This document shows, in pieces, positions 3,183 through 58,943 of a DNA stretch of 64,000 bases (position 1 is its first letter; the number at the start of each line of letters is the position of its first letter). The stretch comes from Eledone cirrhosa (taxonomy: Eukaryota), in the NCBI GenBank assembly GCA_964016885.1, contig OZ024741.1:321036001-321100000 (forward strand). The letters are read 5' to 3'. The position numbers and the translations under genes are program-made. The notes beneath the pieces were generated by a model. It was given only the letters and a program-made list of their open reading frames with translations, ran no database searches and was not told where the DNA came from.

Positions 3183-3322
3183 ATAACGAAGGAAATGTGG
3201 TAAGGAACCAGATGGACCATAACGCACCAGAGTACTCAATACTTAGGGTAGTAGAGTGGGTAATAGGAAAATGTTTGACCTCGACGGCAGAGCTCAAGCC
3301 GTTTCGACGGCTATTTCTGGGC
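3183..3322 (-). repeat. 3' fragment of the U3-A8 HHR element family
   Basis: Reverse complement of ...agccgtcgaaacggcttgagctc...ccactctactaccctaagtattgagtactctggtgcgttatggtccatctggttccttaccacatttccttcgtt, which recurs at 11.8, 21.2, 28.7, 29.4 and 39.3 kb; flanked by (TA)n. Confidence 0.85.
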
Positions 3323-3681
3323 TACTATATATATATATATATATACAAATGAATATATGATAGGGATAAACACTGATACAAGTATACATGTGTTCGCATT
3401 ACAAATGACCAAGTTAGCTAGATTGAAAAATACTAATTAAAATAATACGGTTTGCCTGTCTCGATTTAAAATAATAAATCAATAAAAACAAACCTATATT
3501 GGCAATAGCCGTGATACCTGGACAAATTTAAATTTATATATATAATATATATATATATGCAAAGAGTTGTTGGTTATTCAACAAATTTAATTATAACAGT
3601 TTCGAAGCACTCTACAGTATTCTTCTGGAGTATAATATCAATGATATAAATAAATGGAAACTACCTTTATAAAACCATATT

Positions 3682-3742
3682 TATTTTATTATATATATTT
3701 CAAGGGTACCAACATTTTGGTACTCTCTCATCAGATAAAATA
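3682..3742 (-). ncRNA. Minimal type I hammerhead ribozyme
   Basis: Minus strand reads TATTTTAT-CTGATGA-GAGAGTACCAA aatg TTGGTACCCTT-GAAA-TATATA-TA-ATAAAATA; palindromic stem III; AUA triplet. Confidence 0.75.
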
Positions 3743-3919
3743 CAAAAGTTGTTTTATAAATATTGACATATCCAAAAAACAAAAACTTATCGTTTTAAGT
3801 TCTATTCAAACAGAACTTAAAACGATAAGTTCTTGTTTTGGGGATATGTCAATATTTATAAAACAACTTTTGTATTTTATCTGATGAGAGCGTATCAAAA
3901 TGTTGGTACCCTTGAAATA

Positions 3920-6007: not shown

Positions 6008-6011
<4 letters not shown>

Positions 6012-6906
6012 AGTTAATATAAATTAATATATGATAAACACCAATATAAACATATAAGCGTTTGCATTGTAAACGACCAAGTTAGCTAGATTGAAAAATA
6101 CTAATTAGATTAATACAGTTTGCCTGTCTCGATTTAAAATAATAAATCAATAAAAACAAACCATATTGGCAATAGCCGTGATACCTGGACAAATTTAAAT
6201 TTCAAAATCAAAACCTGTTCCGCAGACAAATTTAAATTTCAAAACCCAAATAAGTTTCGCAACGATAATTTAAAAAAGTGAAAAATTCACGGCTCAGAAA
6301 TACTTCTTTCTTTGAGCTAATTAATTGTAAAAGACTGTTTGAGTTTATAACTCTAAATATAATATTTAACGGCTCCTGTTGTTGAGCTAAATTTTAATCC
6401 CATATAGAAAGCTGTTATTTCTAGCAGCATGAGTATGGGGCTAGCTAGGAGCTGGAAAACCACGTGCTTTAACACTTAACTACCAGTCCTACAAAAATAT
6501 TTCGAGGTGAAACATGCTAATTTCTGGATTCCTGTTGATGACCACAGGAATTGGATTTTTCACTTTTTTAAATTATCGTTGCGAAATTTATTTGGGTTTT
6601 GAAATTTAAATTTGTCTGCGGAACAGGTTTGGATTTTGAAATTTAAATTTGTCCAGGTATCACGGCTATTGCCAATACGGGTTTGTTTTTATTGATTTAT
6701 TATTTTAAATCGAGACAGGCAAACTGTATTAATCTAATTAGTATTTTTCAATCTAGCTAACTTGGTCGTTTACAATGCAAACGCTTATATGTTTATATTG
6801 GTGTTTATCATATATTAATTTATATTAACTTGTATTTCACGGCTCAGAAATGCTTCTTTCTTTGAGCTAATTAATTGTAAAAGACTGTTTGAGTTTATAA
6901 CTCTAA

Positions 6907-6915
<9 letters not shown>
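6008..6915 (+). mobile_element. ~550 bp retrozyme-like monomer (GGCTCAGAAA family) with 5' inverted partial copy
   Basis: ttcacggctcagaaa recurs at 6286 and 6836 (period 550); 6008-6285 is the reverse complement of ~6557-6834; degenerate HHR-like TTGATGA...GC-GAAA at 6531-6596; (TA)n flanks. Confidence 0.7.
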
Positions 6916-6983
<68 letters not shown>

Positions 6984-7187
6984 CGTTTCTGAATTTGTTT
7001 AGCAAGATACTTTATCTGAAATCGTGTGTTGAAACCGATATTGTTATACTTTGGGAGGGTCATGTTGCCAATAAGAAACACACGCACCAGTTGCTTTCAC
7101 TTCAATTTATTATAAATTTATAAATTTATAAATTTATAAATTTATGGTTGGTTGGTTGGTTTCACAACCAGATAGTTGTTTATATAT

Positions 7188-7232
7188 AGTCATAGTTCTT
7201 TCGTCACACACTCTGTGACCTCTTCAGTGACT
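7188..7232 (-). ncRNA. Minimal type I HHR in PLE 3' pLTR
   Basis: AGTCA-CTGAAGA-G-GTCACA gagtg TGTGAC-GAAA-GAAC-TA-TGACT; stem I AGTCA/TGACT; one extra nucleotide after the core. Confidence 0.7.
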
Positions 7233-7432
7233 GGGGATTCCTTTCTTTGTTTCTGTGCCTCTCCTTTGTTCTGTCCTACGCCATTTTGTTTCTGTGTGTG
7301 TGTTGTGTGCTCAGTCTGCGCATGCGCCACATCCGGGTGTCTGTGTGTGTTTATGTTCATTTATTTATTTGTTTATTTACATGTTACTGGTTGGTTGTTT
7401 GTTCTGTGTGTGTGTGTGTTTTCATTTTGTCC

Positions 7433-9287
7433 TTAATTGTAAGTTGTGATGTTGCTGTTCCACTCATATTTTCTATTTAATTTTGGTTGTAATTCTTTTA
7501 TGTTTATTGCCTCTGTAATTTGTCTAAACATTGCGTCTTTTCTGTGTGTAGATTCTATTTTTATTTCTATGTTCTCTAATTTACCCTTGTGTTCTATCTT
7601 AGCATGTTGGTAGAGTACATATGATTCTTTATTATCTTGAAGGTCTCGCCAGTGTTCATTTATCCGTTCCCCTACACTACGAGCTGTCTCACCTATGTAC
7701 ATTATATTTTTGTCTCTACATTGTCCTTCAGTACATCTTATGCTATACACTATATTTCTAGTTTTACAGTTAATATGGGGGCTTATTTTACAGGTTATAC
7801 ATTTCTTATCTATACATGAGGGTCTTTGAAAAGGGTATGTCTTGCTAATAAGTGTTTTTACGGAGGTACCTGGTCTTTCTACTATCTTAATATTGAGTTT
7901 ATGTTTATTTAGGGCCCTTCTAAATTTGTAAGCTAATTCACCTCTCGGGGTTGTATTGATGAACATTACACTCTGGTATTTATTGCTATCATACCATGAG
8001 TTTATTCTATTAGCCTTGTTCCTAGTTCTTTCTATTCTATTCCAAACTTTGCTCCTATACAAGGGGCAGGTCCCATTTATGTCATTATTTACCATTTTTT
8101 CCCATTTGGTTCTGGCTCCTCTATACACTCTGATTTTATCTCTCTGATTGTAGCCAGAGAACTGCATACGGTGGATGAAGTGTTGTATGTGTCTCTCTAG
8201 TTCTTCGGGGTTGCACATGCGGGACACATTTCTCATCACCCGTACCAAATCCGCAATCAGTATGTTGATTTTGGTATGGTCCGAAATGGCCGAGTTTCGG
8301 TGGATCAGATGTTTGGAAGTCATGGGTTTGGCATAATGGGAATGGAGGATTTGTTTTTTGTTGTTAATGGTATCTAACCAGAGCTCTGTGTCTAGTACAG
8401 GTAATCGATGGTTGGGGTGTTTACTTGGGTAGTCTATAGTAACTCTAATGCTCTGGTGGATGGAGTTTGCTATTTGCTGGATGCTTTCCATTGTGTTTTT
8501 CTCTAGTTCCTGACTGTTCTCTAGTGGGGGTGTCTTAACTACGATGTTTATATCATCTACATAGCGGGAGTACATTATCAGGGTTAAGGGGTCTTCTAAT
8601 TGTTCTTTAAGTTTAAGTTTAAGTCTACTGTCCCACCATACCATGAATAAGTTAGCTATGTCGCCTGCAATGCTAACACCAATGGCTGCTCCTTCCTCTT
8701 GGGCATATGTTTTTCCATTAAATTTGAACATATGTTCCTTAAGGGTTAGTTTTATGCTGGCCCCTACCGCATGTGCAATCATTTTCTTCAGTTCATCGTG
8801 GTTTTCGGGTGTCCGTATGGCTCTGGTCCACCCGTTCCATCTATCTGTGTGGGTTTTCTTGGCCATTGAGGTAATGGTAGGTGGTCTGCCTCTTGCTGGT
8901 CTTGTAGGGCACAGGTTGCTAAGGTCATATGTGTCTAGGTAACTATTACTATAGGTGAGCTTAAGTAGGAGTCCCAGCTCACTGGTATCAATCCCACAGA
9001 ACTCAACCTTGCTCTCACTGATCATTTCTACGCATTTCTCCACAGCAAAATCCACGTCAATAGATGGATACAGGGACACAACATCCATACTGCCTATTAT
9101 GCAGTTTGTTAGGTCCCCAGATCGGTTACTCACGCCGATTCTGCTGAGGAGGTCCTCCGTGCTGTCACATACATCTGGGGACATTTCAATGATGGGGCGT
9201 ATGATAAGGGAGAGGAAGTAGGACAGTCTGTAGTTACTAGCAATGTTAGCTCCACAGACTGGCCGTGTTGGTGGTCCCGTGACAGGG
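7433..9287 (-). CDS. PLE reverse transcriptase + Cys-rich linker + GIY-YIG endonuclease (N-terminally truncated, otherwise open; possibly Naiad-like clade)
   Basis: Motifs PPTRPVCGA, SMDVVSLYPSI, QEEGAAIG, RYVDD, LPVLD, CxxxxCxxC, VYSIRC...YIGETARS..ER..EH, EAINI...LN. The first codons of the called ORF (9288-9325) come from the inverted repeat. Clade assignment is tentative. Confidence 0.92.
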
Positions 9288-9744
9288 TAAGATAGTAGAA
9301 AGACCAGGTACCTCCGTAAAAACACTTATTAGCAAGACATACCCTTTTCAAAGACCCTCATGTATAGATAAGAAATGTATAACCTGTAAAATAAGCCCCC
9401 ATATTAACTGTAAAACTAGAAATGTAGTGTATAGCATAAGATGTACTGAAGGACAATGTAGAGACAAAAATATAATGTACATAGGTGAGACAGCTCGTAG
9501 TGTAGGGGAACGGATAAATGAACACTGGCGAGACCTTCAAGATAATAAAGAATCATCTGTACTCTACCAACATGCTAAGATAGAACACAATGGTAAATTA
9601 GAGAACATAGAAATAAAAATAGAATCTACACACAGAAAAGACGCAATGTTTAGACAAATTACAGAGGCAATAAACATAAAAGAATTACAACCAAAATTAA
9701 ATAGAAAATATGAGTGGAACAGCAATATCACAACTTACAATTAA
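9288..9744 (+). pseudogene. Duplicated GIY-YIG C-terminal fragment inside the inverted pLTR
   Basis: Near-identical inverse copy of the ORF 3' end (YIGETARS...EWNSNITTYN). Confidence 0.9.
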
Positions 9745-9849
9745 GGACAAAATGAAAACACACACACACATAGAACAAACAACCAACCAGTAACATGTAA
9801 ATAAACAAATAAATAAATGAACATAAACACACACAGACACCCGGATGTG

Positions 9850-9859
9850 GCGCATGCGC
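9850..9859. promoter_or_regulatory. GCGCATGCGC palindrome (NRF1/EWG-type site) in pLTR, next to CCGGATGT (ETS-like)
   Basis: Exact palindrome here, at 7318-7327, and in the unrelated PLE at 57325-57334; function is inferred. Confidence 0.4.
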
Positions 9860-9946
9860 AGACTGAGCACACAACACACACACACAGAAACAAAATGGCG
9901 TAGGACAGAACAAAGGAGAGGCACAGAAACAAAGAAAGGAATCCCC

Positions 9947-9991
9947 AGTCACTGAAGAGGTCACAGAGTGTGTGACGAAAGAACTATGACT
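9947..9991 (+). ncRNA. Minimal type I HHR in the inverted pLTR
   Basis: Identical to the 7188-7232 motif: CTGAAGA 9952-9958, GAAA 9977-9980. Confidence 0.7.
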
Positions 9992-10133
9992 ATATATAAA
10001 CAACTATCTGGTTGTGGAACCAACCAACCAACCAGAAATTTATAAATTTATAAATTTATAAATATATAATAAATTGAAGTGAAAGCAACTGGTGCGTGGG
10101 TTTCTTATTGGCAACATGACCCTCCCAAAGTAT

Positions 10134-10250
<117 letters not shown>

Positions 10251-11713: not shown

Positions 11714-11807
11714 ACCCCTTGAGAAGATCGGCTATTTAAATACCAGGATAAGTTTTCATTTAGTCCAGAATTAGCCGTCGAAACGGCTTGAGCTCAGCCG
11801 TCGGGGT
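11714..11807 (+). ncRNA. Type I hammerhead with U3-A8 core variant (UUGAGAA)
   Basis: Stem I ACCCC/GGGGT (extended GGAATT/GGTTCC); core TTGAGAA; stem II GA-T-CGGCT...AGCCG-TC; GAAA; stem III CGGC/GCCG with palindromic TGAGCTCA loop; GUC triplet. Confidence 0.72.
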
Positions 11808-12458
11808 CTTACTGGTTCCTATTACCCACTCTACTACCCCAAGTATTGAGTACTTTGGTGCGTTATGGTCCACCTGGTTCCTTACCACATTTCCTTCGTT
11901 ATATATATATATATATATATATGCATAAGTATATCTATCCGAGCATTAAACAAACTGACAGTTATTGTATGAGACATTTTGTACTAAAGGCATAAGTATA
12001 GTGAATTAGCATTATTTCCCTCAAATCCCGCCGAGGTTAACTTTGCCTTTCATCCTTACAGGGTCGATAAAATAAAGTACCAGTAATGCACTGGGTATTG
12101 CTGGCCTTGTGCCTAAAGTAGAAACAATTATTTCACTGTGAAATTATGTATGTTTCTATATCCTTAGTATTGTATTTGTTATTCTTTTTCATTGGGAGCG
12201 TAGAAGTATATATAAATTATAAAATAAGTAAATGTATTCATATTATGCTATTCAATTTACTGGTGCCATATCAATATGCGTACGAGTATGTGTGACTGTA
12301 AATTTTACCCTCCGTTGACCTTGCAGTTGTCAATAATGGACTGTCATTAAGTGCATAGAACTAATGATACATTCATAATTGTCTACCTTAAGTTCTTTCA
12401 TAAACACTCTTAGAGAAGTTAAAGATTTTAAATATGTGCCTATATATATATATATATA

Positions 12459-13237: not shown

Positions 13238-13968
13238 GGGGGTGTATATGTAGGAAGGCTTGTTTGGGAATGCTTGCGTACGCGCTTGTGTGTGTGTAAT
13301 TATTATTTATTATTAAATAATCCATTCTGAGTTCGAATCCCACCGAGGTTAACTTTGCCTTTCATCCTTACGGGGTCGGTAAAATAAAGTACCAGTAATG
13401 CACTGGGTAATTGCTGGCCTTGTGCCAATAGTAGAAACAATTATTAAATGATCTAAAAAAATCTGTCAACTTTCTACCTTAACGTCATTAGATGTACATT
13501 GATATAATGAGTTATTGTGTGGTTATTCTACTTTCATATTTTCCTGTTTTTTATTTGAATTATTTTTTTATCTTTTCAATTGGGTCTTCTTTTTCTATAA
13601 AAACTACACCGCATCCATGATGGCACTTGATACCTTTTTAGGATTGACTCTTCTACTTCACCGCAATCGTTATCAAATCATACTGTCTAGTTAAAGATGT
13701 TTTTTACTAGAGGCTTTGATGGATTAGCTGTCAACAGTATGATAAACAATTAAGTTAAAAATGTACATCTACATATGCATACTGAAATACTAGTGTGTAT
13801 ATGAATACACACACGTATACATATGTAGGTGTACCAAGTCTTTCACTGGTCGCTTTACAGTGAGCGGCCCAGCTATTCTGTATGTAAACACACAGACAAA
13901 CCGGTTTTTAGAGTCATACTGGTTTCGGGGGAACACCTTCCCTCTATTCTCCAGAAAGCCAGACAAGG

Positions 13969-14013
13969 AATATTGAACTAGTTTCGTTGTTGTTACAACT
14001 CATCAGCAATATT
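13969..14013 (-). ncRNA. Type I hammerhead ribozyme
   Basis: Inverse copy of 14504-14548. Confidence 0.88.
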
Positions 14014-14410
14014 GACCTATCTACCGGCCTTTCTGGAGAATTGTAAAAGCACATATCGTTATATGCTTTTTCTATGAAAATTAGTAGTGGGCAGACTAAT
14101 TTGCATAGAGTGTGAGTACGCACCGGTTCAGCGGAGACGATAAAAACAAATAACGAAACGAAATTAAATTTCGCTTCGTTTGTAACTCACTTTTGTATGA
14201 CTGACGCTTAGACTTGGTACACCTACATATGTATACGTGTGTGTATTCATATACACACTAGTATTTCAGTATGCATATGTAGATGTACATTTTTAACTTA
14301 ATTGTTTAAGCGTCAGTCATACAAAAGTGAGTTACAAACGAAGCGAAATTTAATTTCGTTTCGTTATTTGTTTTTATCGTCTCCGCTGAACCGGTGCGTA
14401 CTCACACTCT

Positions 14411-14457
14411 ATGCAAATTAGTCTGCCCACTACTAATTTTCATAGAAAAAGCATATA
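14411..14457 (+). promoter_or_regulatory. Octamer ATGCAAAT plus conserved TAATxTxCATA..AAAGxATATA block (snRNA-type promoter candidate)
   Basis: Octamer at 14411-14418; downstream 24-mer shares 18/24 positions with the 427-bp family (minus strand, ~38161-38207). Confidence 0.5.
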
Positions 14458-14503
14458 ACGATATGTGCTTTTACAATTCTCCAGAAAGGCCGGTAGATAG
14501 GTA

Positions 14504-14548
14504 AATATTGCTGATGAGTTGTAACAACAACGAAACTAGTTCAATATT
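14504..14548 (+). ncRNA. Type I hammerhead ribozyme
   Basis: AATATTG-CTGATGA-GTTGT aaca ACAAC-GAAA-CTAG-TT-CAATATT; palindromic stem III ACTAGT; GUU triplet; stem I extended by ATTCTCCAGAAAG/CTTTCTGGAGAAT. Confidence 0.9.
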
Positions 14549-14906
14549 CCTTGTCTGGCTTTCTGGAGAATAGAGGGAAGGTGTTCCCCCGAAACCAGTA
14601 TGACTCTAAAAACCGGTTTGTCTGTGTGTTTACATACAGAATAGCTGGGCCGCTCACTGTAAAGCGACCAGTGAAAGACTTGGTACACCTACATATGTAT
14701 ACGTGTGTGTATTCATATACACACTAGTATTTCAGTATGCATATGTAGATGTACATTTTTAACTTAATTGTTTAAGCGTCAGTCATACAAAAGTGAGTTA
14801 CAAACGAAGCGAAATTTAATTTCGTTTCGTTATTTGTTTTTAGTATGATAAACGTTTTGATGAAAGAACCACCGAAAGTGAGTAAATAGCGGAAGTCCTA
14901 TATGTT

Positions 14907-21058: not shown

Positions 21059-21262
21059 TAGGAACCAGTAAGACCCCGACAGCTGAGCTCAAGCCGTTTC
21101 GACGGCTAATTCTGGACTAATTTAGTCCAGAATTAGCCGTCGAAACGGCTTGAGGTCAGCTGTCGGGGTCTTACTGGTTCCTATTACCCACTCTACTACC
21201 TCAAGTATTGAGTACTTTGGTGCGTTATGGTCCACCTGGTTCCTTACCACATTTCCTTCGTT
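21059..21262 (+). repeat. Near-perfect hairpin plus tail fragment of the U3-A8 HHR family
   Basis: Arms 21059-21120 and 21122-21183 with a 1-nt spacer; tail to ccttcgtt; (TA)n flanks. Confidence 0.85.
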
Positions 21263-21491: not shown

Positions 21492-21609
21492 CATACATAT
21501 ATATATACATATATATATATATTAAAATACAAATATTAATAAAATAGATGTTCCTGTGATCAATTAAATTTTATTATACATATTTCAGAGGTATGTCATG
21601 TATCATTTT

Positions 21610-21662
21610 ATTTTATCTGATGAGGACGTACTGTTGTACCTCTGAAATATGTATAATAAAAT
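21610..21662 (+). ncRNA. Minimal type I hammerhead (related to 3682-3742) inside hairpin element 21520-21806
   Basis: ATTTTAT-CTGATGA-GGACGTAC tgtt GTACCTCT-GAAA-TATGTA-TA-ATAAAAT; shares tail motif tactgtagagtgcttc with the 3.6 kb element. Confidence 0.72.
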
Positions 21663-21802
21663 GTAATTGATCACAGGAACATCTATTTTATTAATATTTG
21701 TATTTTAATATTAATAACTCTGGAAAATATTTTTACTGTAGAGTGCTTCCAATCTCCTGTAAAACTCATTCTTTGATGTACACATTGAATCTTGTTTAAC
21801 TC

Positions 21803-27995: not shown

Positions 27996-28560
27996 GGTTA
28001 ACACAAATCAATATATTTGATAAACACAAATATCCTCATATTTATGTTTGTATTGTAAATGACCAAGTTAGCTAGATAGAAATATACTAATAATAATATT
28101 ACAGTTTGCCTATCATGACTTAAGATAATACATCATAAATCAACAAAAACAAATTGTATTGGCAATGGCCGTAGTGCTTGGACAAATTTAAATTTCAAAA
28201 TCAAACCTGTTCCGTAGACAGGTTTAAACCTTAAAATCCAAATATGTTTCGAATAATGAAAAAGTGGAAGAAAATATCGCATTTTGATCTCCTCAGCAAG
28301 CACTATAAAAATTGGTATGTTCCACTTCAAAATATTTAGGAAGACTGTTTAGCGCACGAGGTAACCTCATGCGGTTATCCAGTGTCTAGCTAGCCACATA
28401 CTCGTGCTGCTAGAAATAACAGCCGTTTGTATGGGGCTAAAATCAGCTCAACGAAGGAGCAGTGAAAAATCAATAATAATGAGTTCAAATCTCAGGCGAT
28501 CATTTACAATGAAATAGCTCGAAGAAAGAGTATTTCTGAGCCGTGTAATATAGGTTAACA
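27993..28560 (-). mobile_element. ~557 bp monomer of the GGCTCAGAAA retrozyme-like family
   Basis: Homologous to 6286-6836; ataggttaaca at both ends (period 557); HHR-like CTGAGGA-GA...TC-GAAA-CATA-TT at 28237-28300. Confidence 0.7.
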
Positions 28561-28619
28561 TTATTATTGATTATATATATAGGTTAACATTATTATTGAT
28601 TATATATTTATATATATAT

Positions 28620-28811
28620 ATAGGAAAATGTTTAACCCCGACGGCAGAGCTCAAGGTATTTCGACGGCTATTTCTGGACTCGAGTCCAAAAATAGCCGTC
28701 GAAAGCTCTGCCGTCGGGATTAAACATTTTCCTGTTACCCACTCTACTACACTAAGTATTGAGTACTCTGGTGCATTATGGTCCATCTGGTTCCTTACCG
28801 CATCTCCTTCG

Positions 28812-28813
<2 letters not shown>
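28620..28813 (+). repeat. Hairpin plus tail fragment of the U3-A8 family
   Basis: Inverted arms centred on ggactcgagtcc; same tail. Confidence 0.8.
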
Positions 28814-29268: not shown

Positions 29269-29457
29269 GAAAAGAGTCAGAACTCCGACGGCTGAGCTCC
29301 GGCCGTTTCGACAGTTACATCAAACCTAGTTATCGAAACGGCCGGAGTTCAGCCGTCGGAGTCCTGACTCTTTTCCTATTACCCACTCTACTACCCTAAG
29401 TATCGAGTACTCTGGTGCGTTATGGTCCACCTGGTTCCTTACTATACTCCCTTCGTT
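29266..29457 (+). repeat. Hairpin plus tail fragment, diverged subfamily of the U3-A8 family
   Basis: taggaaaagagtcag..ccgtttcga / tcgaaacgg..ctgactcttttccta arms; GAAA-CGGC..GCCG-TC retained. Confidence 0.75.
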
Positions 29458-32656: not shown

Positions 32657-33419
32657 TGTATATATATTACAAATGGAAATTTGGTAAAATCGAAGTTCTG
32701 GCTGTGGCCAAGCTAACGAGATACAATTAGATTTGTGCAGCAAAGCACTCAGTAGGGTGTATCACCCTAGAGTAATTAACATACGTTAGCGTGACAAATT
32801 GAAAACTGCGACAGGCGGGCCTAGCCACATAATACACCAAAACAACGAAAATACATTCAGGTTAGATAACATATATATATATAATCATACAGAACAAGAA
32901 ATGTATCCACACACAGACACCACACATACGTTTAATACTGAGAGTGATGAGTGTGTGTATGTGAGTCTCTATGTGGGTGTTTGTGTGGGTATGAATGTAT
33001 GTATACTTGTATAGTCATTATATTTGAATGTGGTATATTTGTTTTTGCTGGTTTTTATGGTGAAACTCGAGTACACGTCCACAAATGTACAAATACATTT
33101 GTATACACCTCTCTCTCTCTTTTCTCTCTTGAATAATCCCTTCATCGAAGCATTCATTTTGCTTTTTCTAAGGGCTAGAATATATGTGGCTCACCATACC
33201 TGCATACTCATAGAATTCTCCGCTACCTGGAGCAGTTGATCAGACAGAAAATTCATAATCAGAAACACATACAACAGATTAGCGACCCAAAGGTCAGACA
33301 TATTACATTGAGTCATCTTTTTGAAACAGGCAGGACTAAAATGTTTAAACATTATCATTTTATAGACATTATGACTCAAGTAAATTTAAAAGAGTCTAGT
33401 CAAAGTCAAAAGTCTGTAT

Positions 33420-37881: not shown

Positions 37882-38082
37882 AGTATGTATACGTATTTAC
37901 ATATATGTATACAGACGTACAGTAGTATGTATATATATACATACATGCACACATATATATGGACGTATGGATTTACCGAACATTTATTATAATGCTCGGT
38001 GTGTTTGTAAACAAACATCCCGAATTAAGCCCTACAGTGTTTAGCAGCCATCGTTGCCCTTTTGTTCAACACAGACAAAGGA

Positions 38083-38125
38083 ACGATGTACTAGTTTCAA
38101 GCTTATTAGCTATCGTCAGCACCGT
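38083..38125 (-). ncRNA. Type I hammerhead ribozyme, unit 1
   Basis: ACGGTG-CTGACGA-T-AGCT aata AGCT-T-GAAA-CTAG-TA-CATCGT; palindromic ACTAGT stem III; GUA triplet; U10.1-U11.1. Confidence 0.85.
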
Positions 38126-38507
38126 ATACCTTCCTGCCAGATGATTGAACGTCTGAAAGTATATACTTTCCTTATGCATATTAACGGCTGAGCAGCCTAA
38201 TTTGCATATCGAGTGAGTTAATCGGCCGGACGCACCGAAAACGATAAACGGAAAAAATGAAACGAAATTTCATTTCTCACTCTTAGTACGGCTGTTACTT
38301 AAATATAAGTATATATACGTACATACATATATGTATACAGACGTACGGTAGTATGTATATATGTATACATGCACACATATATATATGTACGTATGGATTT
38401 ACCGAACATTTATTATAATGCTCGGTGTGTTTGTAAACAAACATCCCGAATTAACCCTACAGTGTTTAGCAGCCATCGTTGCCCTTTTGTTCAACACAGA
38501 CAAAGGA

Positions 38508-38550
38508 ACGATGTACTAGTTTCAAGCTTATTAGCTATCGTCAGCACCGT
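38508..38550 (-). ncRNA. Type I hammerhead ribozyme, unit 2
   Basis: Identical to unit 1. Confidence 0.85.
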
Positions 38551-38935
38551 ATACCTTCCTGCCAGATGATTGAACGTCTAAAAGTATATACTTTCCTTAT
38601 GCATATTAACGGCTGAGCAGCCTAATTTCCATATCGAGTGAGTTAATCGGCCGGGCGCACCGAAAACGATAAACGGAAAAAATGAAACGAAATTTCATTT
38701 CTCACTCTTAGTACGGCTGTTACTTAAATATAAGTATGTATACGTACATACATATATGTATACAGACGTACAGTAGTATGTATATATATGCATACATGCA
38801 CACATATATATATGTACGTATGGATTTACCGAACATTTATTATAATGCTCGGTCTGTTTGTAAACAAACATCCCGAATTAAGCCGTACAGTGTTTAGCAA
38901 CCATCGTTGCCCTTTTGTTCAACACTGACAAAGGA

Positions 38936-38978
38936 ACGATGTACTAGTTTCAAGCTTATTAGCTATCGTCAGCACCGT
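38936..38978 (-). ncRNA. Type I hammerhead ribozyme, unit 3
   Basis: Identical to unit 1. Confidence 0.85.
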
Positions 38979-39186
38979 ATACCTTCCTGCCAGATGATTG
39001 AACGTCTGAAAGTATATACTTTCCTTATGCATATTAACGGCTGAGCAGCCTAATTTGCATATCGTGTAAGTTAATCGGCCGGGCGCACCGAAAACGATAA
39101 ACGGAAAAAATGAAACGAAATTTCATTTCTCACTCTTAGTACGGCTGTTACTTAAATATAAGTATGAATACGTACATACATATATG

Positions 39187-39243
<57 letters not shown>

Positions 39244-39390
39244 TATACATATATTTATACATATTTCCCACTCTACTACCCTAAGTATTGAGTACTCTGG
39301 TGCGTTATGGTCCATCTGGTTCCTTACCACAATTCCTTTGTTATACATATATATATATATATATACATACATATATAAATATATAAACAT

Positions 39391-39546: not shown

Positions 39547-40698
39547 TCATATATATATTCAACTTATACGTTTTTGATGACTTAAACTCTAGCCAATTTT
39601 GAAGTGACTAAATATGTATTTTAAATACTTTTAATATTAATTAATTTAAAAAGGTTTTCTAGTCAATTCTCCGGTTTACATTTCTATCTTTTCTTTTACT
39701 TAACCGCTTGTGACACCTAAGTAAATATACTTGTTTTTGTTTTTCGATCTTCGGTTTATTTTATTTGTTTTTTTACTACCACACGCTGTCTCTCGCATTC
39801 ATGTAATTTCATCAATATATGTCTGTGTATGTCTACCACGTAAATATATATATTAAGCATTTCCTTAGACTTTGTTTGATATTTGATATTAACGTTGTTA
39901 TATCATATCATTTTTATGTAATCGTATTATAGATTTTAATATATGTTATTTGAAGTACTGTTCTGTTATATTTTGTAATATTTTGTGATATTTTGGTAAT
40001 ATTTATGCCAATGTAAAATGACTTGACCTCCGTGTATTTGTTACAATGGTATAGATATTTTTTCAACACAATTTAGTTCTATATGATTTTTTCTTATCCT
40101 GTGTAAAACTTTATACTATTTGTTAACCTTGAATTATATATATGATGTAATTTTGTATATCTTTTGATGCCAATATATTATAATATTGTTATTATAATGT
40201 TATTATAATGTTTTTATATTGTTTATGCACACTGACAGGGAATTATATATTATATTTTATTTTTATTTTTATCTTTATTCTTATTTTTATCTTTATTATA
40301 TTATACTGTAAACAATATATATATATATATTTAAATACTAAATAAGTGTTAGTTTGTGTTTGTACTAATGTATATATGTATAGATATATATATATATATA
40401 CATATATTAAGCTTTTTATTATCACCATCTATTATATTATATTATATATCGTACTGTAATTCTCGCATTATATTACCATTTGTGTTTCAAGTTTTTGCAT
40501 TATACAATATTTGCAATGTGGGTTCAACGTGTTAATCACTTCCATGCTATTTGGTCTATATCTATGTTTGTAACTGCTCACTCTTAATCTTAGCCAACTT
40601 TTCCTTGATATCTTTCCTAAGCTTTAATAAATGTATACTCCATATTCTTGTGAGTTTTGGGCTTGTATTGGCCGATAGTGCTTCTTGTAGCTTTACTT

Positions 40699-40736
40699 GC
40701 CCTGATGAGTCCTTAATAGGACGAAACATTGTTGGC
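40699..40736 (+). ncRNA. Canonical minimal type I hammerhead
   Basis: GCC-CTGATGA-GTCCT taat AGGAC-GAAA-CATTG-TT-GGC followed by AATAAA, near the end of an AT-rich non-coding block (~39560-40890). Confidence 0.82.
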
Positions 40737-40929
40737 TAATAAAGACTTTTGATGTATTGAAGGCTTCTTTGGGTTATTTTTTATAATTCTTCGGCTCTGT
40801 TTAATTACATTGAGCTATATCTCATACTGTCATTTCTATAATATGAAGAGGGTGTTTAACTCCAACACACTCTAGTATTTTAATTCTTATATATATTCAT
40901 ATATATATATATATACATAAATATATATA

Positions 40930-41100: not shown

Positions 41101-41208
41101 ATCATCAGCATTGTATACCTTCCTGGCAGATGGTTGAACGTCTGAAAGTATATACTTTCCTTATGCGCAGCCGTTAATATGCATAAGGAAAGTATATACT
41201 TTCAGACG

Positions 41209-41212
<4 letters not shown>
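41101..41212. repeat. Inverted fragment of the 427-bp retrozyme family
   Basis: atcatcagcattgtataccttcctggcagatggttgaacgtctgaaagtatatactttccttatgc, followed by a partial inverse; core variant CTGATGA. Confidence 0.8.
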
Positions 41213-41248
<36 letters not shown>

Positions 41249-41699
41249 TGAATATATGAGAGGGATATATTTAATTGTATTACACGGCTCGGAAAGATTC
41301 CCTTCCTTGAGCCATTTAATTGAAAAAGACTATTTTCAGTTTATATATATATATATAAACTGAAAATAGTCTTTTACAATTAAATATATATATATATCCA
41401 GTCTTAGTTGATTAGCCCCAGGTCAATCTTGAATGAGCAGATTCATGATCAATTATATTCCAGCCGTAAACTATCCTAAATTATTTCTTTTCATTCAACG
41501 CATTTATAACTGCATTATATAAATGTCCATTATGTTTTTGTTTGTTGCTTATTTTAAGTTGCAAGAATGTGAAATGAAATTGTTTTCGTTGATATTGTTG
41601 GCAGATTGTGCGACAATATAGAAACTCTCCAGTTGTCCCCACCGTAATGGTGGTCGAGGAAATGATTACAGAAAGAAAGATAGAAAGAAAGGAGAAAAT

Positions 41700-54248: not shown

Positions 54249-55285
54249 CAGGCTGCGTATGATATTTGTTCGCAAGATTACTGTCTAGGAAAAAATAACA
54301 CAGTACTTTTATTTGTTAAGATATATTTATCACACTTGGGTCAGTTTGTCTTCATGACTTGTTCTTTCGATCTCACTCGATAAACCCGCTATTGGCTTTG
54401 ATGACGGCCTCAAGGCGGCATCGGAACCGGCTACAGGCCTTCGTCACTGTCCCCCGACTTAGGCCCCTAAAGGTACTTGTGATCCTGGCCTTCAGATCGT
54501 CTTTCTTATTGCAGCTAGATCTGTTGGTGTCTCGTTCCACTGCGCCCCACACAAAGAAGTCGAGGGGGTTGCAGTCAGGCGAGCTGAGAGGCCAGATGTC
54601 ACGTGAAGTGTGGTTGACGAAATTCTCTGACAGCTAGGCTTGGGTCTTTCGGCTGGTATGGCAGGGCGCTGAGTCTTGCTGCCACACGTACGGCCTACCT
54701 GCAGCTACCTGGTCGATCCAGGGCTTTACTATCTCGCTCAGAACGCAGATGTAGCCATTGGTGTTCAGCTTGAGGCCCTCAGGGAAGAAGTGAGGTGGCA
54801 TGACGTCACCTTGACTGCTGACGACACCTAAGACCAATGTTGTTGCTGGAAACTTTGTCTGCCTGACTCTGGGCACGTCTTTGGATGAGACAGCGAGCCA
54901 CCTGTTGTTCTGGGAGTTGATCTTCTGGTCTTGGCAGAAGTTTTTCTCATCGGAGAAAAACAACAGCACGTCTGGCTCCAGTAGGTGTTTCAACTTGTTG
55001 CTTCGTCGTCGAATCCTGAATCTTCCAATTCCTTTCCACCATTCTCCTGCTGACGCTGAGAAAGTCTGAAATTTCCTTATTTGTCCTCCTGCGCGGATTC
55101 CAAGAAGAACTCCGTGTCTCTTCCACAAATTTGGAGGTTCAAAATTATTCATAATCAATTATTCTGAAGGTAAATAATGGAAATATAGTCACTGTTTTTA
55201 TGAAGACAAGAGTAACAACGGAAGTAAAAATCATTTGCATAAAATTAGCAGTTGAAAATTGCGAACAAATATCGTCCACACCCTG
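54249..55285 (-). mobile_element. Tc1/mariner DD37D (maT-like) transposon, internally deleted
   Basis: TIRs caggctgcgtatgatatttgttcgcaa / ttgcgaacaaatatcgtccacaccctg; TA flanks. Confidence 0.88.
54373..55152 (-). pseudogene. DD37D transposase pseudogene
   Basis: FSDEKNF...WQQDSAPCH..*LSENF..WPLSSPDCNPLDFFVW; 37 residues between the second and third D; in-frame TAG and N-terminal deletion. Confidence 0.88.
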
Positions 55286-56321: not shown

Positions 56322-56524
56322 ATATATATTTATATATATTTATATATATATGGTATCCCATAAAATGTATTGCTGTTGTTGCTAGTGGGAGAGTAGGTGA
56401 TAGGTTGCGAGAAGCCGCTGTTAGCTAATGCCGTGTTATAGTAGGGTCTCGCTCTGTCAAAGATAGCCTTATTCGAGGAGAGGTTTGAGATTCTAGTACT
56501 GATAATATTTACGAAGTTTCTAAA

Positions 56525-57214
56525 AACACCAATAAGAAAATAAAGCGTAGCAATAGACAAACTATCTGGTTCTCTCCTCTCTTCTCACTCAACGTTAAAA
56601 CCAATGTAGGCAAACAATTTCTAACCCTCTTAGATAGACACTTTCCCATAGGTAATAATTACCGCTCCATATTTAACCGACACAAAGTTAAACTGGGATA
56701 CTCTTGCGCTAAGAACATGAAGGCCCACATCACCAACAGCCCTAAGAGCAACACTCCACCAGGGTGCTCTTGTCGTAAGCCCGAAGTTTGTCCCCTTCAA
56801 CAGCAATGCAACATACCCGCTGTAGTTTATGAAGCTGTGGTCACTTCCGACCGACCAAATCAACCACAGGAGGTCAAATCCTATGTGGGTATGGCGGAGG
56901 GCCGATTTAAGGAACGCTTCCTGAACCACCAGTCGACCTTTAGGTACCCGGACAGTCGTTCATCCACGAAACTCGCAAGCCACGTATGGTCCCTCAAGGT
57001 CTCAAGTATAGACTACTCCATTCAATGGAAATCCATCACTAAGTCCAAACCATACGCAAGGGGCAATCCGTCGTGTGGACTATGTATTGATGAACGAATA
57101 AATATTCTAAAGAGATTACACAATAGTGATTGCCTAAACTCAAGGAATGAATTCTTCACACGTTGTCCACACGTCTGGAAACACCTCTTACATAACTACA
57201 AAGCTCCGGATTGA
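56525..57214 (+). CDS. PLE linker + GIY-YIG endonuclease (partial, open from 56525)
   Basis: TIWFSPLFSLNVKTNVGKQFL...CSCRKPEVCPLQQQC..VVYEAVV...SYVGMAEGRFKERFLNH...CGLCIDE..LNSRNE..CPH. Confidence 0.85.
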   Translation, partial: NTNKKIKRSNRQTIWFSPLFSLNVKTNVGKQFLTLLDRHFPIGNNYRSIFNRHKVKLGYSCAKNMKAHITNSPKSNTPPGCSCRKPEVCPLQQQCNIPAVVYEAVVTSDRPNQPQEVKSYVGMAEGRFKERFLNHQSTFRYPDSRSSTKLASHVWSLKVSSIDYSIQWKSITKSKPYARGNPSCGLCIDERINILKRLHNSDCLNSRNEFFTRCPHVWKHLLHNYKAPD

Positions 57215-57376
57215 ATCACAACATCCTAATTTTCTTATCAACTAGAAACTTTCGGACTTTCGCAGGTATCTCCCTTACACCTCTCACACGCAATTTAGTA
57301 TTCCTGTATGAAGTGATCGTTTCTGCGCATGCGCGTTCGTATGGTTGTCCTTCCTGTTCCGTATAACCATGTCCAT

Positions 57377-57419
57377 TACGAGCTGAGGATCCGCTAAGGT
57401 GAAACAATTGTTCTCGGTA
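57377..57419 (+). ncRNA. Minimal type I hammerhead in PLE 3' UTR
   Basis: CGAG-CTGAGGA-T-CC gctaa GG-T-GAAA-CAATTG-TT-CTCG; palindromic stem III; GUU triplet; U10.1-U11.1. Confidence 0.78.
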
Positions 57420-57671
57420 GGGTGAACTAACTGTTGTGTAACCACTTCTACCTAACTCGTCCCATGGACTGAGTGCTCTACCACTACGGATATTACCTTC
57501 CAGTGTTCTACCACTATATATATAAATATATATATATACACGCGCGCGAAAACACACAAGTGTGCATACATACACACACACTCGCGCAAAAGATAGGGTC
57601 GATGTTTATATACACCCAACATTTTACAGATCACCACAAACATCCTTTTTCTTTTTGCTAAATCCCCAAGC

Positions 57672-57925: not shown

Positions 57926-58108
57926 AATAGTTTAATATCAATAGAATTTAAAAGAAAAACGAACACAGACATATATATGTGTTCAAATCGTAAGGGACCT
58001 GATCCGCTAAGGTGAAAAGAATACTAACTATAGACAATAGGGTTCGCTTGTCTCAATTTAAGAAAAAATTAAGAAAATAAATACAAACCGGAATTGTGGT
58101 AACTACCA

Positions 58109-58183
58109 ATCACCCAGACAACTTGTTGTTTCGCAAAGTTAATTGTGAATAGAAATACCAATCCAAGCTCATCAGTGGGTGAT
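58109..58183 (-). ncRNA. Type I hammerhead ribozyme, GUC site
   Basis: ATCACCCA-CTGATGA-GC...GC-GAAA-CAAC aa GTTG-TC-TGGGTGAT; 8-bp stem I, 5-bp stem III. Confidence 0.88.
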
Positions 58184-58489
58184 GAATTAGTATCCTAGAC
58201 ACATCTAAGTATGCTATATATAAAATACATAAAATAGCGCACATGGCATCCTAGCGTGTCTCATAAACCCACACCACTAAAAATAGCAGCCAGGTTCACT
58301 CGACATTTGAAATAGCTCAACAAATTAACGGAGCCGAATATATCAACGGTATGTATTGAGTTAGGAATGTATTGAGTTAGAAAGTGATATTTCTGAGCCG
58401 TATATTAATAGAATATAAAAGAAAAACGAACACAGACATATATATGTGTTCAAATCGTAAGGGACCTGATGTGTCTAGGATACTAATTC

Positions 58490-58601
58490 ATCACCCACTG
58501 ATGAGCTTGGATTGGTATTTCTATTCACAATTAACTGATGAGCTTGGATTGGTATGTCTATTCACAATTAACTTTGCGAAACAACAAGTTGTCTGGGTGA
58601 T
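58490..58601 (+). ncRNA. Inverted copy of the same HHR with a 37-bp internal duplication
   Basis: ctgatgagcttggattggtat(t/g)tctattcacaattaa occurs twice (58498-58534, 58535-58571). Confidence 0.8.
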
Positions 58602-58863
58602 TGGTAGTTACCACAATTCCGGTTTGTATTTATTTTCTTAAATTTTTCTTAAATTGAGACAAGCGAACCCTATTGTCTATAGTTAGTATTCGTTTCACCT
58701 TAGCGGATCTGGTCCCTTACGATTTGAACACATACATATATATATATATGTTTGTTCGTTTTTCTTTTATATTCTATTGTAATATACGGCTCAGAAATAT
58801 CTCTTTCTTAGAGCTATTTTATTGTAAGAGACTATTTTGAGTTCCTAACTCAATATATACCTT

Positions 58864-58943
<80 letters not shown>

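Follow-up and report, generated by a model that had tools for sequence, protein, structure and literature searches.

How animal retrozymes are copied, and why the tails of Penelope-type elements (PLEs) are one-sided, are open questions. Both are raised by a locus near 58 kb in a 64,000-nucleotide stretch of Eledone cirrhosa DNA, which was analysed as a whole and is called the window here. An earlier note on this DNA had placed the locus in a hammerhead-bearing repeat family and had argued that the family is copied from circular templates. We therefore asked what this repeat is, where its copies begin and end, and which RNA and which enzyme would produce them.

The repeat family and its copies

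Copies and arms were mapped by masked self-BLAST of the microsatellite-rich window. The signature pattern that the earlier note had described as common to loci at 6, 28 and 58 kb is indeed present at all three (matches at 6290, at 28515 on the minus strand and at 58787), and 100 shuffles gave no match. A looser signature search of the window added 6838, 41284 and a damaged occurrence at 58403. Two fragments that had been assigned to the family, near 3.35-3.53 and 41.27-41.39 kb, also matched it (3346-3535 and 41266-41341), and a miniature inverted arm at 41240-41266 had been overlooked. The copies and their parts are listed below; E1 and E2 are the sites before stem 1 and stem 2, respectively, at which 3′ ends were found.

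3346-3535, minus strand: 3.4 kb copy, 5′-truncated, 190 nt, beginning ~15 nt upstream of the cleavage site; E1 end
6010-6289, minus strand: 6 kb inverted arm, 281 nt, five differences from the direct arm; E1 end
6286-6915, plus strand: 6 kb direct arm, a 550-nt unit followed by a 76-nt tail; starts at E1, ends at E2
27997-28575, minus strand: 28 kb copy, a single arm of one 551-557-nt unit plus ~25 nt; E1 end
41240-41345, both orientations: 41.3 kb miniature two-armed insertion, a ~25-nt inverted arm ending at E1 plus a direct arm
57935-58470, minus strand: 58 kb left arm, comprising a 467-nt unit and a further 69 nt; E1 end
58315-58334, minus strand: stem 2 (GCTC...GAGC) of the 58 kb left arm
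58340-58398, minus strand: damaged stem 1 and tail of the 58 kb left arm, with ~38 nt swapped for a 16-nt duplication
58468-58536, plus strand: 58 kb arm junction, a 69-nt exact inverted copy of 58137-58205
58534-58871, plus strand: 58 kb right arm, 5′-truncated, with tail, in (TA)n; 3′ end at E2
58789-58814, plus strand: stem 1 of the 58 kb right arm (GCTC, 5-bp hairpin, 2-nt bulge, GAGC)

By masked self-BLAST, the 58 kb locus consists of two back-to-back arms between (TA)n runs. Its left arm holds a unit of only 467 nt because the tail is partly deleted, and the intact tail matching this position is seen as a loose end in 138 reads. The earlier observation of about one monomer with terminal redundancy was confirmed at 58 kb, where 57935-58003 recurs at 58402-58470 with a period of 467, and at 6 kb, where 6286-6361 recurs at 6836-6911 with a period of 550. 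The inverted partial units reported at two loci were likewise recovered by masked self-BLAST, at 6 and 58 kb. Three of the five loci have an inverted arm, set back to back with a direct one; of these paired arms, one stops at E1 and its partner at E2 or close to it. Three of the five have more than one unit. The 28 kb and 3.4 kb copies are single-armed. In the 41.3 kb insertion, stem 1 of the direct arm lies at 41287-41312, and the arm is followed by a tail fold-back to ~41385. No locus among the five exceeds 1.15 units, and reads show head-to-tail joints across E1.

The units are 467-557 nt long, with 67-80% identity over aligned columns between three subfamilies. Identities were 424 of 531 aligned columns for the 6 and 28 kb units, 310 of 434 for the 6 and 58 kb units and 298 of 442 for the 28 and 58 kb units, each above every one of 30 shuffles. 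GC content is 0.31-0.35, and the flanks are (TA)n, which would hide any target-site duplication. In all three subfamilies the unit closes on itself, from tail through hammerhead and back to E1, within its 467-557 nt. The longest stop-free frame in the three units has 71 codons; the unit is non-coding and has no LTR. The description as a retrozyme-like, hammerhead-bearing unit without coding capacity is supported. A tblastn comparison of the units with the two PLE frames of the window gave nothing below E 0.59. Since the units lack the RT and GIY-YIG reading frame, we do not class the family as an autonomous PLE.

The 58 kb unit matched 1,343-1,483 contigs in each of three runs from one sample, and the 6 kb unit matched 1,197 contigs in one run, numbers that are not copy numbers. 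The signature pattern had no match in metagenome contigs. The window itself resembles animal genomic DNA in being AT-rich, with many microsatellites and retroelements. We conclude that the family exists as described, as an abundant, hammerhead-bearing non-coding repeat of ~500 bases.

3′ ends and twin stems

In the RNA sense, each unit carries two GCTC...GAGC stems 80-81 nt apart (64 nt in the damaged 58 kb left arm). When the 6 kb and 28 kb units were each shuffled 5,000 times, no shuffle had a pair of such stems within its first 115 nt. The stems lie at 6292-6317, 6372-6387 and 6842-6867 in the 6 kb direct arm, and at 28517-28541 and 28446-28460 in the 28 kb copy. Seven of the eight 3′ ends mapped within the window, at five loci, lie 3-9 nt before a stem, and five of them lie exactly 6 nt before it. 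E1 ends precede stem 1 by 6 nt at 6 kb (inverted arm), 28 kb, 41.3 kb and 3.4 kb, the last distance resting on the joint letters of reads across E1, and by 8-9 nt in the 58 kb left arm, as measured on the stem 1 of read-through copies. That arm ends at E1 despite the damage to its own stem 1. E2 ends precede stem 2 by 6 nt in the 6 kb direct arm and by 3 nt at maximal extension in the 58 kb right arm, while the 41.3 kb direct arm ends 22 nt before the stem 2 position. All of these distances are maximal extensions into TA, where microhomology makes every end uncertain by a few bases.

The 5′ ends, by contrast with the 3′ ends, scatter. We rejected the cleavage site as their origin, since none of the eight arms starts there. 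A depth drop near 58116 falls at the variable stem III, and no similar drop is seen at 6653. In a single case, the 5′ end of the 6 kb direct arm (6286) coincides with E1, so that this arm is exactly one unit plus tail; such an end could be an RNA 5′ end or a block at a protein-bound stem. Contig depth on the 6 kb unit, which is not a copy number, falls from 51,824-119,447 over 6305-6361 to 4,501 just past E2. In a RAD run, the depth step at E2 is far weaker (~180 to 48, and back to ~265), and the step on the 6 kb unit may partly reflect divergence.

The redundancy had been described as variable in phase, which was taken to argue for circular templates. We find instead that the 3′ ends are fixed at two stems, and that the redundancy differs among loci because random truncation affects the 5′ ends, the sole ends that vary. 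The argument from phase to circles is not supported. The possibility that had been named against that argument, fragments of the pLTR of a coding PLE with fixed ends, agrees with our data in the fixed ends; the coding element was not found.

This is the layout published for PLEs, which have (TA)n targets, a one-sided tail and an inverted 5′-truncated copy (PMC8557442). In vitro, a PLE tail spans the distance from one internal RT start site to the other, cutting and extension take place on both target strands, and the hammerhead need not cleave (PMC11167929). Poseidon PAc of Anolis carolinensis, studied in that work, resembles the present family in its two internal start sites with a spacing that equals the tail, its AT-rich target and its ends away from the hammerhead cut. 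PAc differs in being autonomous and in having its start sites close together within one AC-rich stem-loop, whereas the two sites here are ~80 nt apart, each with its own stem copy just 3′ of it.

Two other elements of the window, the coding PLE at 7038-10141 and a hammerhead family near 14 kb, have the same layout as the family studied. The PLE is young and 5′-truncated (6983-10141), with a 630-codon RT and GIY-YIG frame on the minus strand (7433-9325), a Cx2-5CxxC linker of the Neptune/Nematis type, an 854-nt inverted arm with 11 differences and a one-sided tail of ~58 nt; its frame gave no match to solved structures. The 14 kb family (13738-14853) is two-armed, with a 466-nt unit, arms that are 100% identical, a 68-nt tail, a clear 12-nt target-site duplication and an octamer-like motif. 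Because the bulged stem is absent from it, this family probably uses another helper. Three 427-nt tandem units at 37882-39187 are related to it (67-71%) and had no hammerhead hit in the strict scan described below; 41136-41211 is a fold-back fragment of this repeat.

Hammerheads of the three subfamilies

The hammerheads of the family are predictions read from sequence and folds. A strict scan gave six hits in the window and none in 20 shuffles. It allowed a stem III of less than 40 nt and so missed the 28 kb and 6 kb motifs, which were found by eye and then folded.

58109-58183, minus strand: type I hammerhead of the 58 kb left arm; predicted cut after 58117
58490-58601, plus strand: second 58 kb hammerhead, whose domain II carries a 37-nt duplication; cut predicted after 58593
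28174-28303, minus strand: 28 kb type I hammerhead with an intact core; predicted cut after 28181
6527-6661, plus strand: 6 kb hammerhead with a decayed or variant core (U3, C10.1, U15.2)

E1 is 180-184 nt downstream of the predicted cleavage site in each of the three subfamilies. At 58 kb, the motif had been called a full GUC hammerhead and excellent. The core is full and the GUC is present, on the minus strand, with an 8-bp stem I, CUGAUGA, GAAA, a stem III of 4-5 bp and a 36-nt domain II with a weak stem; the word excellent overstates it. Stem II has two pairs followed by U-U mismatches, the hammerhead fold lies 6.5 kcal/mol above the minimum, and the pair probability of stem I in context is 0.03-0.04. 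Folding prediction has both the 58 kb and the 6 kb hammerheads mostly misfolded in context. The Rfam score at 58 kb is weak (18.7 bits, E 2.6); no hammerhead of the family has a gathering-level Rfam match, and the 28 kb motif gave no Rfam hammerhead match. Two-pair stems II are reported to be frequent among natural hammerheads (PMC3088659). Among the eight substitutions listed for the 58 kb hammerhead in other copies, none falls in the core, and two, at about half the depth, lengthen stem II to 4 bp. In other copies, the stem III sequences differ yet still pair.

The cores at the other two loci had been described as decayed. This holds at 6 kb (U3, C10.1, U15.2) but not at 28 kb, where the core and stems I and III are intact. 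The 28 kb hammerhead has a 7-bp stem I, CUGAGGA, a 2-bp stem II with a large loop, GAAAC and GUC. Its helix III runs to 29 bp and is capped by cUACGg, and the 66-nt domain III folds at -24.6 kcal/mol (z -6.35, equalled in 0 of 500 shuffles), compared with -10.0 kcal/mol for the antisense. Stems I and III form the dominant fold in context. Stem II is weak, and the hammerhead fold lies 4.1 kcal/mol above the minimum; ribozyme activity is uncertain because of this weak stem II. At 6 kb, U15.2 is private to the direct arm: C15.2 is found in the inverted arm, in 4,245 of 4,270 of the contig depth and in 128 of 128 reads. U3 recurs in one other read stack, where coverage is too thin to tell which core the subfamily has.

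Helix III of the 6 kb hammerhead is also long (27 bp), rich in G-U pairs and capped by cUGCGg. Its arms consist of a near-palindrome of 37 nt repeated in tandem, so the rod probably arose by duplication. The G-U bias in helix III (5 and 10 G-U juxtapositions, 0 A-C) was rejected as a sign of selection or editing, since it follows automatically when an imperfect palindrome is duplicated. In most animals, type I hammerheads are described as dimer-active with a helix III of 1-2 bp, and large helices III are known from fungal and protist PLEs (PMC4209133). None of the 26 Hydra hammerhead rows in File S2 of PMC8557442 has more than four pairs in helix III; the 58 kb stem III resembles the 3-4 bp stems of those rows, and the long helix III has no counterpart among them. 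With its long helix III, the 28 kb hammerhead is a naturally occurring case on which monomer activity of an animal type I ribozyme could be tested.

Other families in the window contribute type I hammerheads at 3682-3742 (minus strand), 21609-21663 (plus) and 40686-40756 (plus). The first sits in a long fold-back (3725-3890).

Template, helper and alternative explanations

Taken with the ends, stems and arms described above, the sequence makes it quite probable that this is a repeat with Penelope-type ends, likely a non-autonomous PLE (a non-LTR retrozyme), copied by a borrowed Hydra-clade RT/GIY-YIG enzyme that would start at two hairpin-marked sites. An RNA longer than the unit would be bound at its stems by the PLE protein, and both strands of a (TA)n target would be cut. 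Reverse transcription would then be primed within the RNA by each cut end, at E1 by the first and at E2 by the second, and the two cDNAs would stop at random and join by microhomology or snap-back. Hammerhead cleavage itself is a prediction. Non-autonomous, hammerhead-bearing parasites of PLEs are a known kind of element.

Several observations bear on the template. All six arms that are long enough run through the cleavage site uncut, and the 28 kb copy and the 58 kb left arm exceed one unit; this would be expected equally of a multimer left uncleaved, of a template jump and of a ligated circle. The two passes of the 58 kb left arm agree at 67 of 69 bases and share alleles absent from the right arm. 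Between the two 58 kb arms there are 10 substitutions and an 8-nt indel in 249 columns, and outside the microsatellite they differ at only 4 of ~200 bases. Right-arm alleles recur in other copies: a 4-nt insertion is present in 25 contigs and in 172 of 528 reads, and a second allele equals the loose-end consensus of 17-19 contigs. That the arm alleles differ and recur elsewhere suggests that the two 58 kb arms were probably copied from two different templates. The 6 kb arms have minority alleles in common and show five differences in 281 columns, consistent with a single template. We lean towards an uncleaved multimer or a template jump; a circle is conceivable, at somewhat less than even chances.

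In its stricter form, the circle would be a monomer entered by reverse transcription at variable phase. The uncut crossings, the arms longer than one unit and the left-arm alleles missing from the right arm would all fit it, as would circular folds that are steadier in the sense orientation (at 28 kb, -151.9 kcal/mol versus -129.0 kcal/mol for the antisense), and RNA circles have been shown for the retrozymes of coral, mussel and axolotl (PMC7229834). The entry phase, however, is fixed and not variable, one circle cannot easily template two arms with different alleles, and the window holds no long tandem array of the family; moreover, the RNA that serves as PLE template in vitro is mainly uncleaved (PMC11167929). 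We consider copying from such a circle improbable. If a circle were instead read from the two fixed start sites, it would fall under the two-site explanation that we prefer. About as little credence goes to the copies being 3′ fragments (pLTRs) of a longer coding PLE, with no independent non-coding unit. In its favour, the fixed ends, the tail, the inversion and the (TA)n targets are each characteristic of PLEs, and a kinship of Xenopus retrozymes with pLTRs has been reported (bioRxiv 10.64898/2026.07.22.740005). Yet three subfamilies close from tail to E1 within a unit that has no long frame, and reads join the intact tail to the body and E1 to the start of the unit. In the consensus files of PMC8557442 the signature had no forward match and one reverse match, in an algal-type Chlamys record, and it was absent from the published Naiad and Hydra files, although line breaks in these files could hide a match. 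By analogy with the argument made for Xenopus (bioRxiv 10.64898/2026.07.22.740005), a long-ago origin of the family by deletion from a coding PLE is likely.

A repeat spread at the DNA level, as a satellite, a MITE or a microsatellite rearrangement with a chance or vestigial hammerhead, would account for the AT-rich sequence embedded in microsatellites, the missing gathering-level Rfam match and the two of three hammerheads that are predicted to fold poorly. Against it, the core and its register to E1 are kept across subfamilies, and stem I sequences differ yet pair; helix III at 28 kb is stable on one strand only; a 5′-truncation gradient is seen; and the inverted arms are unequal in length and end point, unlike terminal inverted repeats. 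We regard this explanation as very improbable.

The preferred explanation, a non-autonomous PLE started at two stems, raises the question of the helper. A fragment of a Hydra-type PLE lies close to the 58 kb locus, as a neighbour that is not a member of the family.

56489-57515, plus strand: Hydra-type PLE fragment (3′ part), with a GIY-YIG frame (CxCx5C, CxxC..E, N..CxH)

By eye, this fragment has a minimal hammerhead at ~57377-57419 with U-U at the base of stem II, and it has a bulged stem at 57455-57474, 40 nt before (TA)n. The exact stem was also found by eye in three of six published Hydra consensi (PMC8557442), behind the hammerhead in Hydra-2_Amil and Hydra-2_Ajap and twice at the element start, 61 nt apart, in Hydra-1_Ajap; by eye, Hydra-1_Obim and Hydra-1_Amil have no exact stem in those consensi and Hydra-1_Crog has only a partial one. 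The bulged-stem pattern, which was set after the family had been seen, has 18 hits in the window compared with a shuffle mean of 1.39 and maximum of 4, and these hits represent ~7 independent contexts, three of them not near (TA)n. The stem is a marker chosen in this analysis and not a published defining trait of the Hydra clade. It marks a subset, because the tails of the Neptune/Nematis-type PLE and of the 14 kb family are without it. We rejected the Neptune/Nematis-type PLE at 7038-10141 as the helper, since its tail has no stem and it has no similarity to the units. If the helper is a PLE, the shared stem makes the Hydra clade a reasonably probable source.

No alignable homology of the units to the Hydra pLTR was found beyond one 18-nt antisense match to the fragment in the window. 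This match is exact, between the Hydra-type hammerhead (57388-57405) and the 58 kb right arm (58692-58709), with E 1.6e-4. It was set aside as evidence of kinship, since the commonest read allele at 58004 breaks it; it is either chance or an old captured inversion.

Apart from the stem (GCTC, hairpin, NN, GAGC), the family resembles the Hydra clade of C-terminal EN+ PLEs (PMC8557442) in its (TA)n targets, a hammerhead near the 3′ end and an inverted truncated copy with a tail. It differs in having no reading frame and no alignable sequence beyond short motifs, and in a tail of ~76-85 nt rather than the 30-40 nt given there. Non-autonomous Chlamys elements such as MRC1 (PMC8557442) are similarly non-coding PLE parasites with pLTRs and head-to-tail copies; they are, however, from green algae, most of them are described as lacking canonical hammerheads, and they resemble their helper in 3′-end sequence, a likeness not found in the family studied.

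Closer relatives are the metazoan non-LTR retrozymes (PMC7229834; bioRxiv 10.64898/2026.07.22.740005), which are also non-coding, with a type I hammerhead, a low GC content (31-35% in the present family) and high copy number, and for which a PLE has likewise been proposed as helper. The unit length falls inside the 51-972 bp range of the bioRxiv study, in which active elements are defined by tandem copies with at least two consecutive hammerhead units. In contrast to such arrays of at least two hammerhead units, the copies here comprise 1.0-1.15 units in back-to-back arms. Domain II carries an insert of 36-41 nt, one subfamily has a helix III of 27-29 bp rather than the usual 1-2 bp (PMC4209133), and the end motif is conserved, whereas according to a review such repeats have no motif that would identify their helper (PMC7761336). 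RNA circles are known from the metazoan retrozymes, and the present family is known from its DNA.

A fuller reading of these results is tentative, at a little under even chances. The twin bulged stems would serve as rulers for the start of a Hydra-clade RT, acting as a dimer that starts 6 nt before each stem so that the stem spacing sets the tail length, and both would have been kept through ~30% divergence; the 29-bp UNCG-capped rod would derive from a duplicated palindromic helix III; and one insertion would stem from two templates. If this were true, a cis-signal would tie an animal retrozyme to its helper, and one subfamily would have turned a dimer-type hammerhead into a one-molecule ribozyme. 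A short stem that Hydra-clade PLEs also have, at a fixed distance from both ends, is a motif that would name the helper, and in vitro assays of an established type could be run with mutated stems. In a literature search that covered few subscription papers, we found no report of twin stems at PLE start sites or of a 29-bp helix III in an animal retrozyme. A repeat annotation of octopus lists active PLEs, in passages that leave ribozymes unmentioned (PMC13282606).

The window contains further repeats. A very short two-armed palindromic family of ~140-190 nt, unrelated to the one studied, is found at 3186-3324, 11758-11899, 21073-21261, 28623-28812, 29333-29456 and 39262-39345. By eye, six copies have an ACTC/GAGT bulged stem 48-54 nt before (TA)n, and in two cases an inverted arm stops 5-7 nt short of that stem. 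It gave no hammerhead in the strict scan and is a candidate for a minimal Hydra-dependent element. Another bulged ACTC/GAGT stem lies at 32747-32773 on the minus strand, 80 nt before a TA run. At 54634-55158 on the minus strand, a frame without a Pfam hit at E 0.001 resembles, by eye, a fragment of a Tc1/mariner transposase. Between 41700 and 53700 there are at least four decayed L1/Tx1-like copies (endonuclease and RT by Pfam), bounded by (GATA)n and nested or in tandem.
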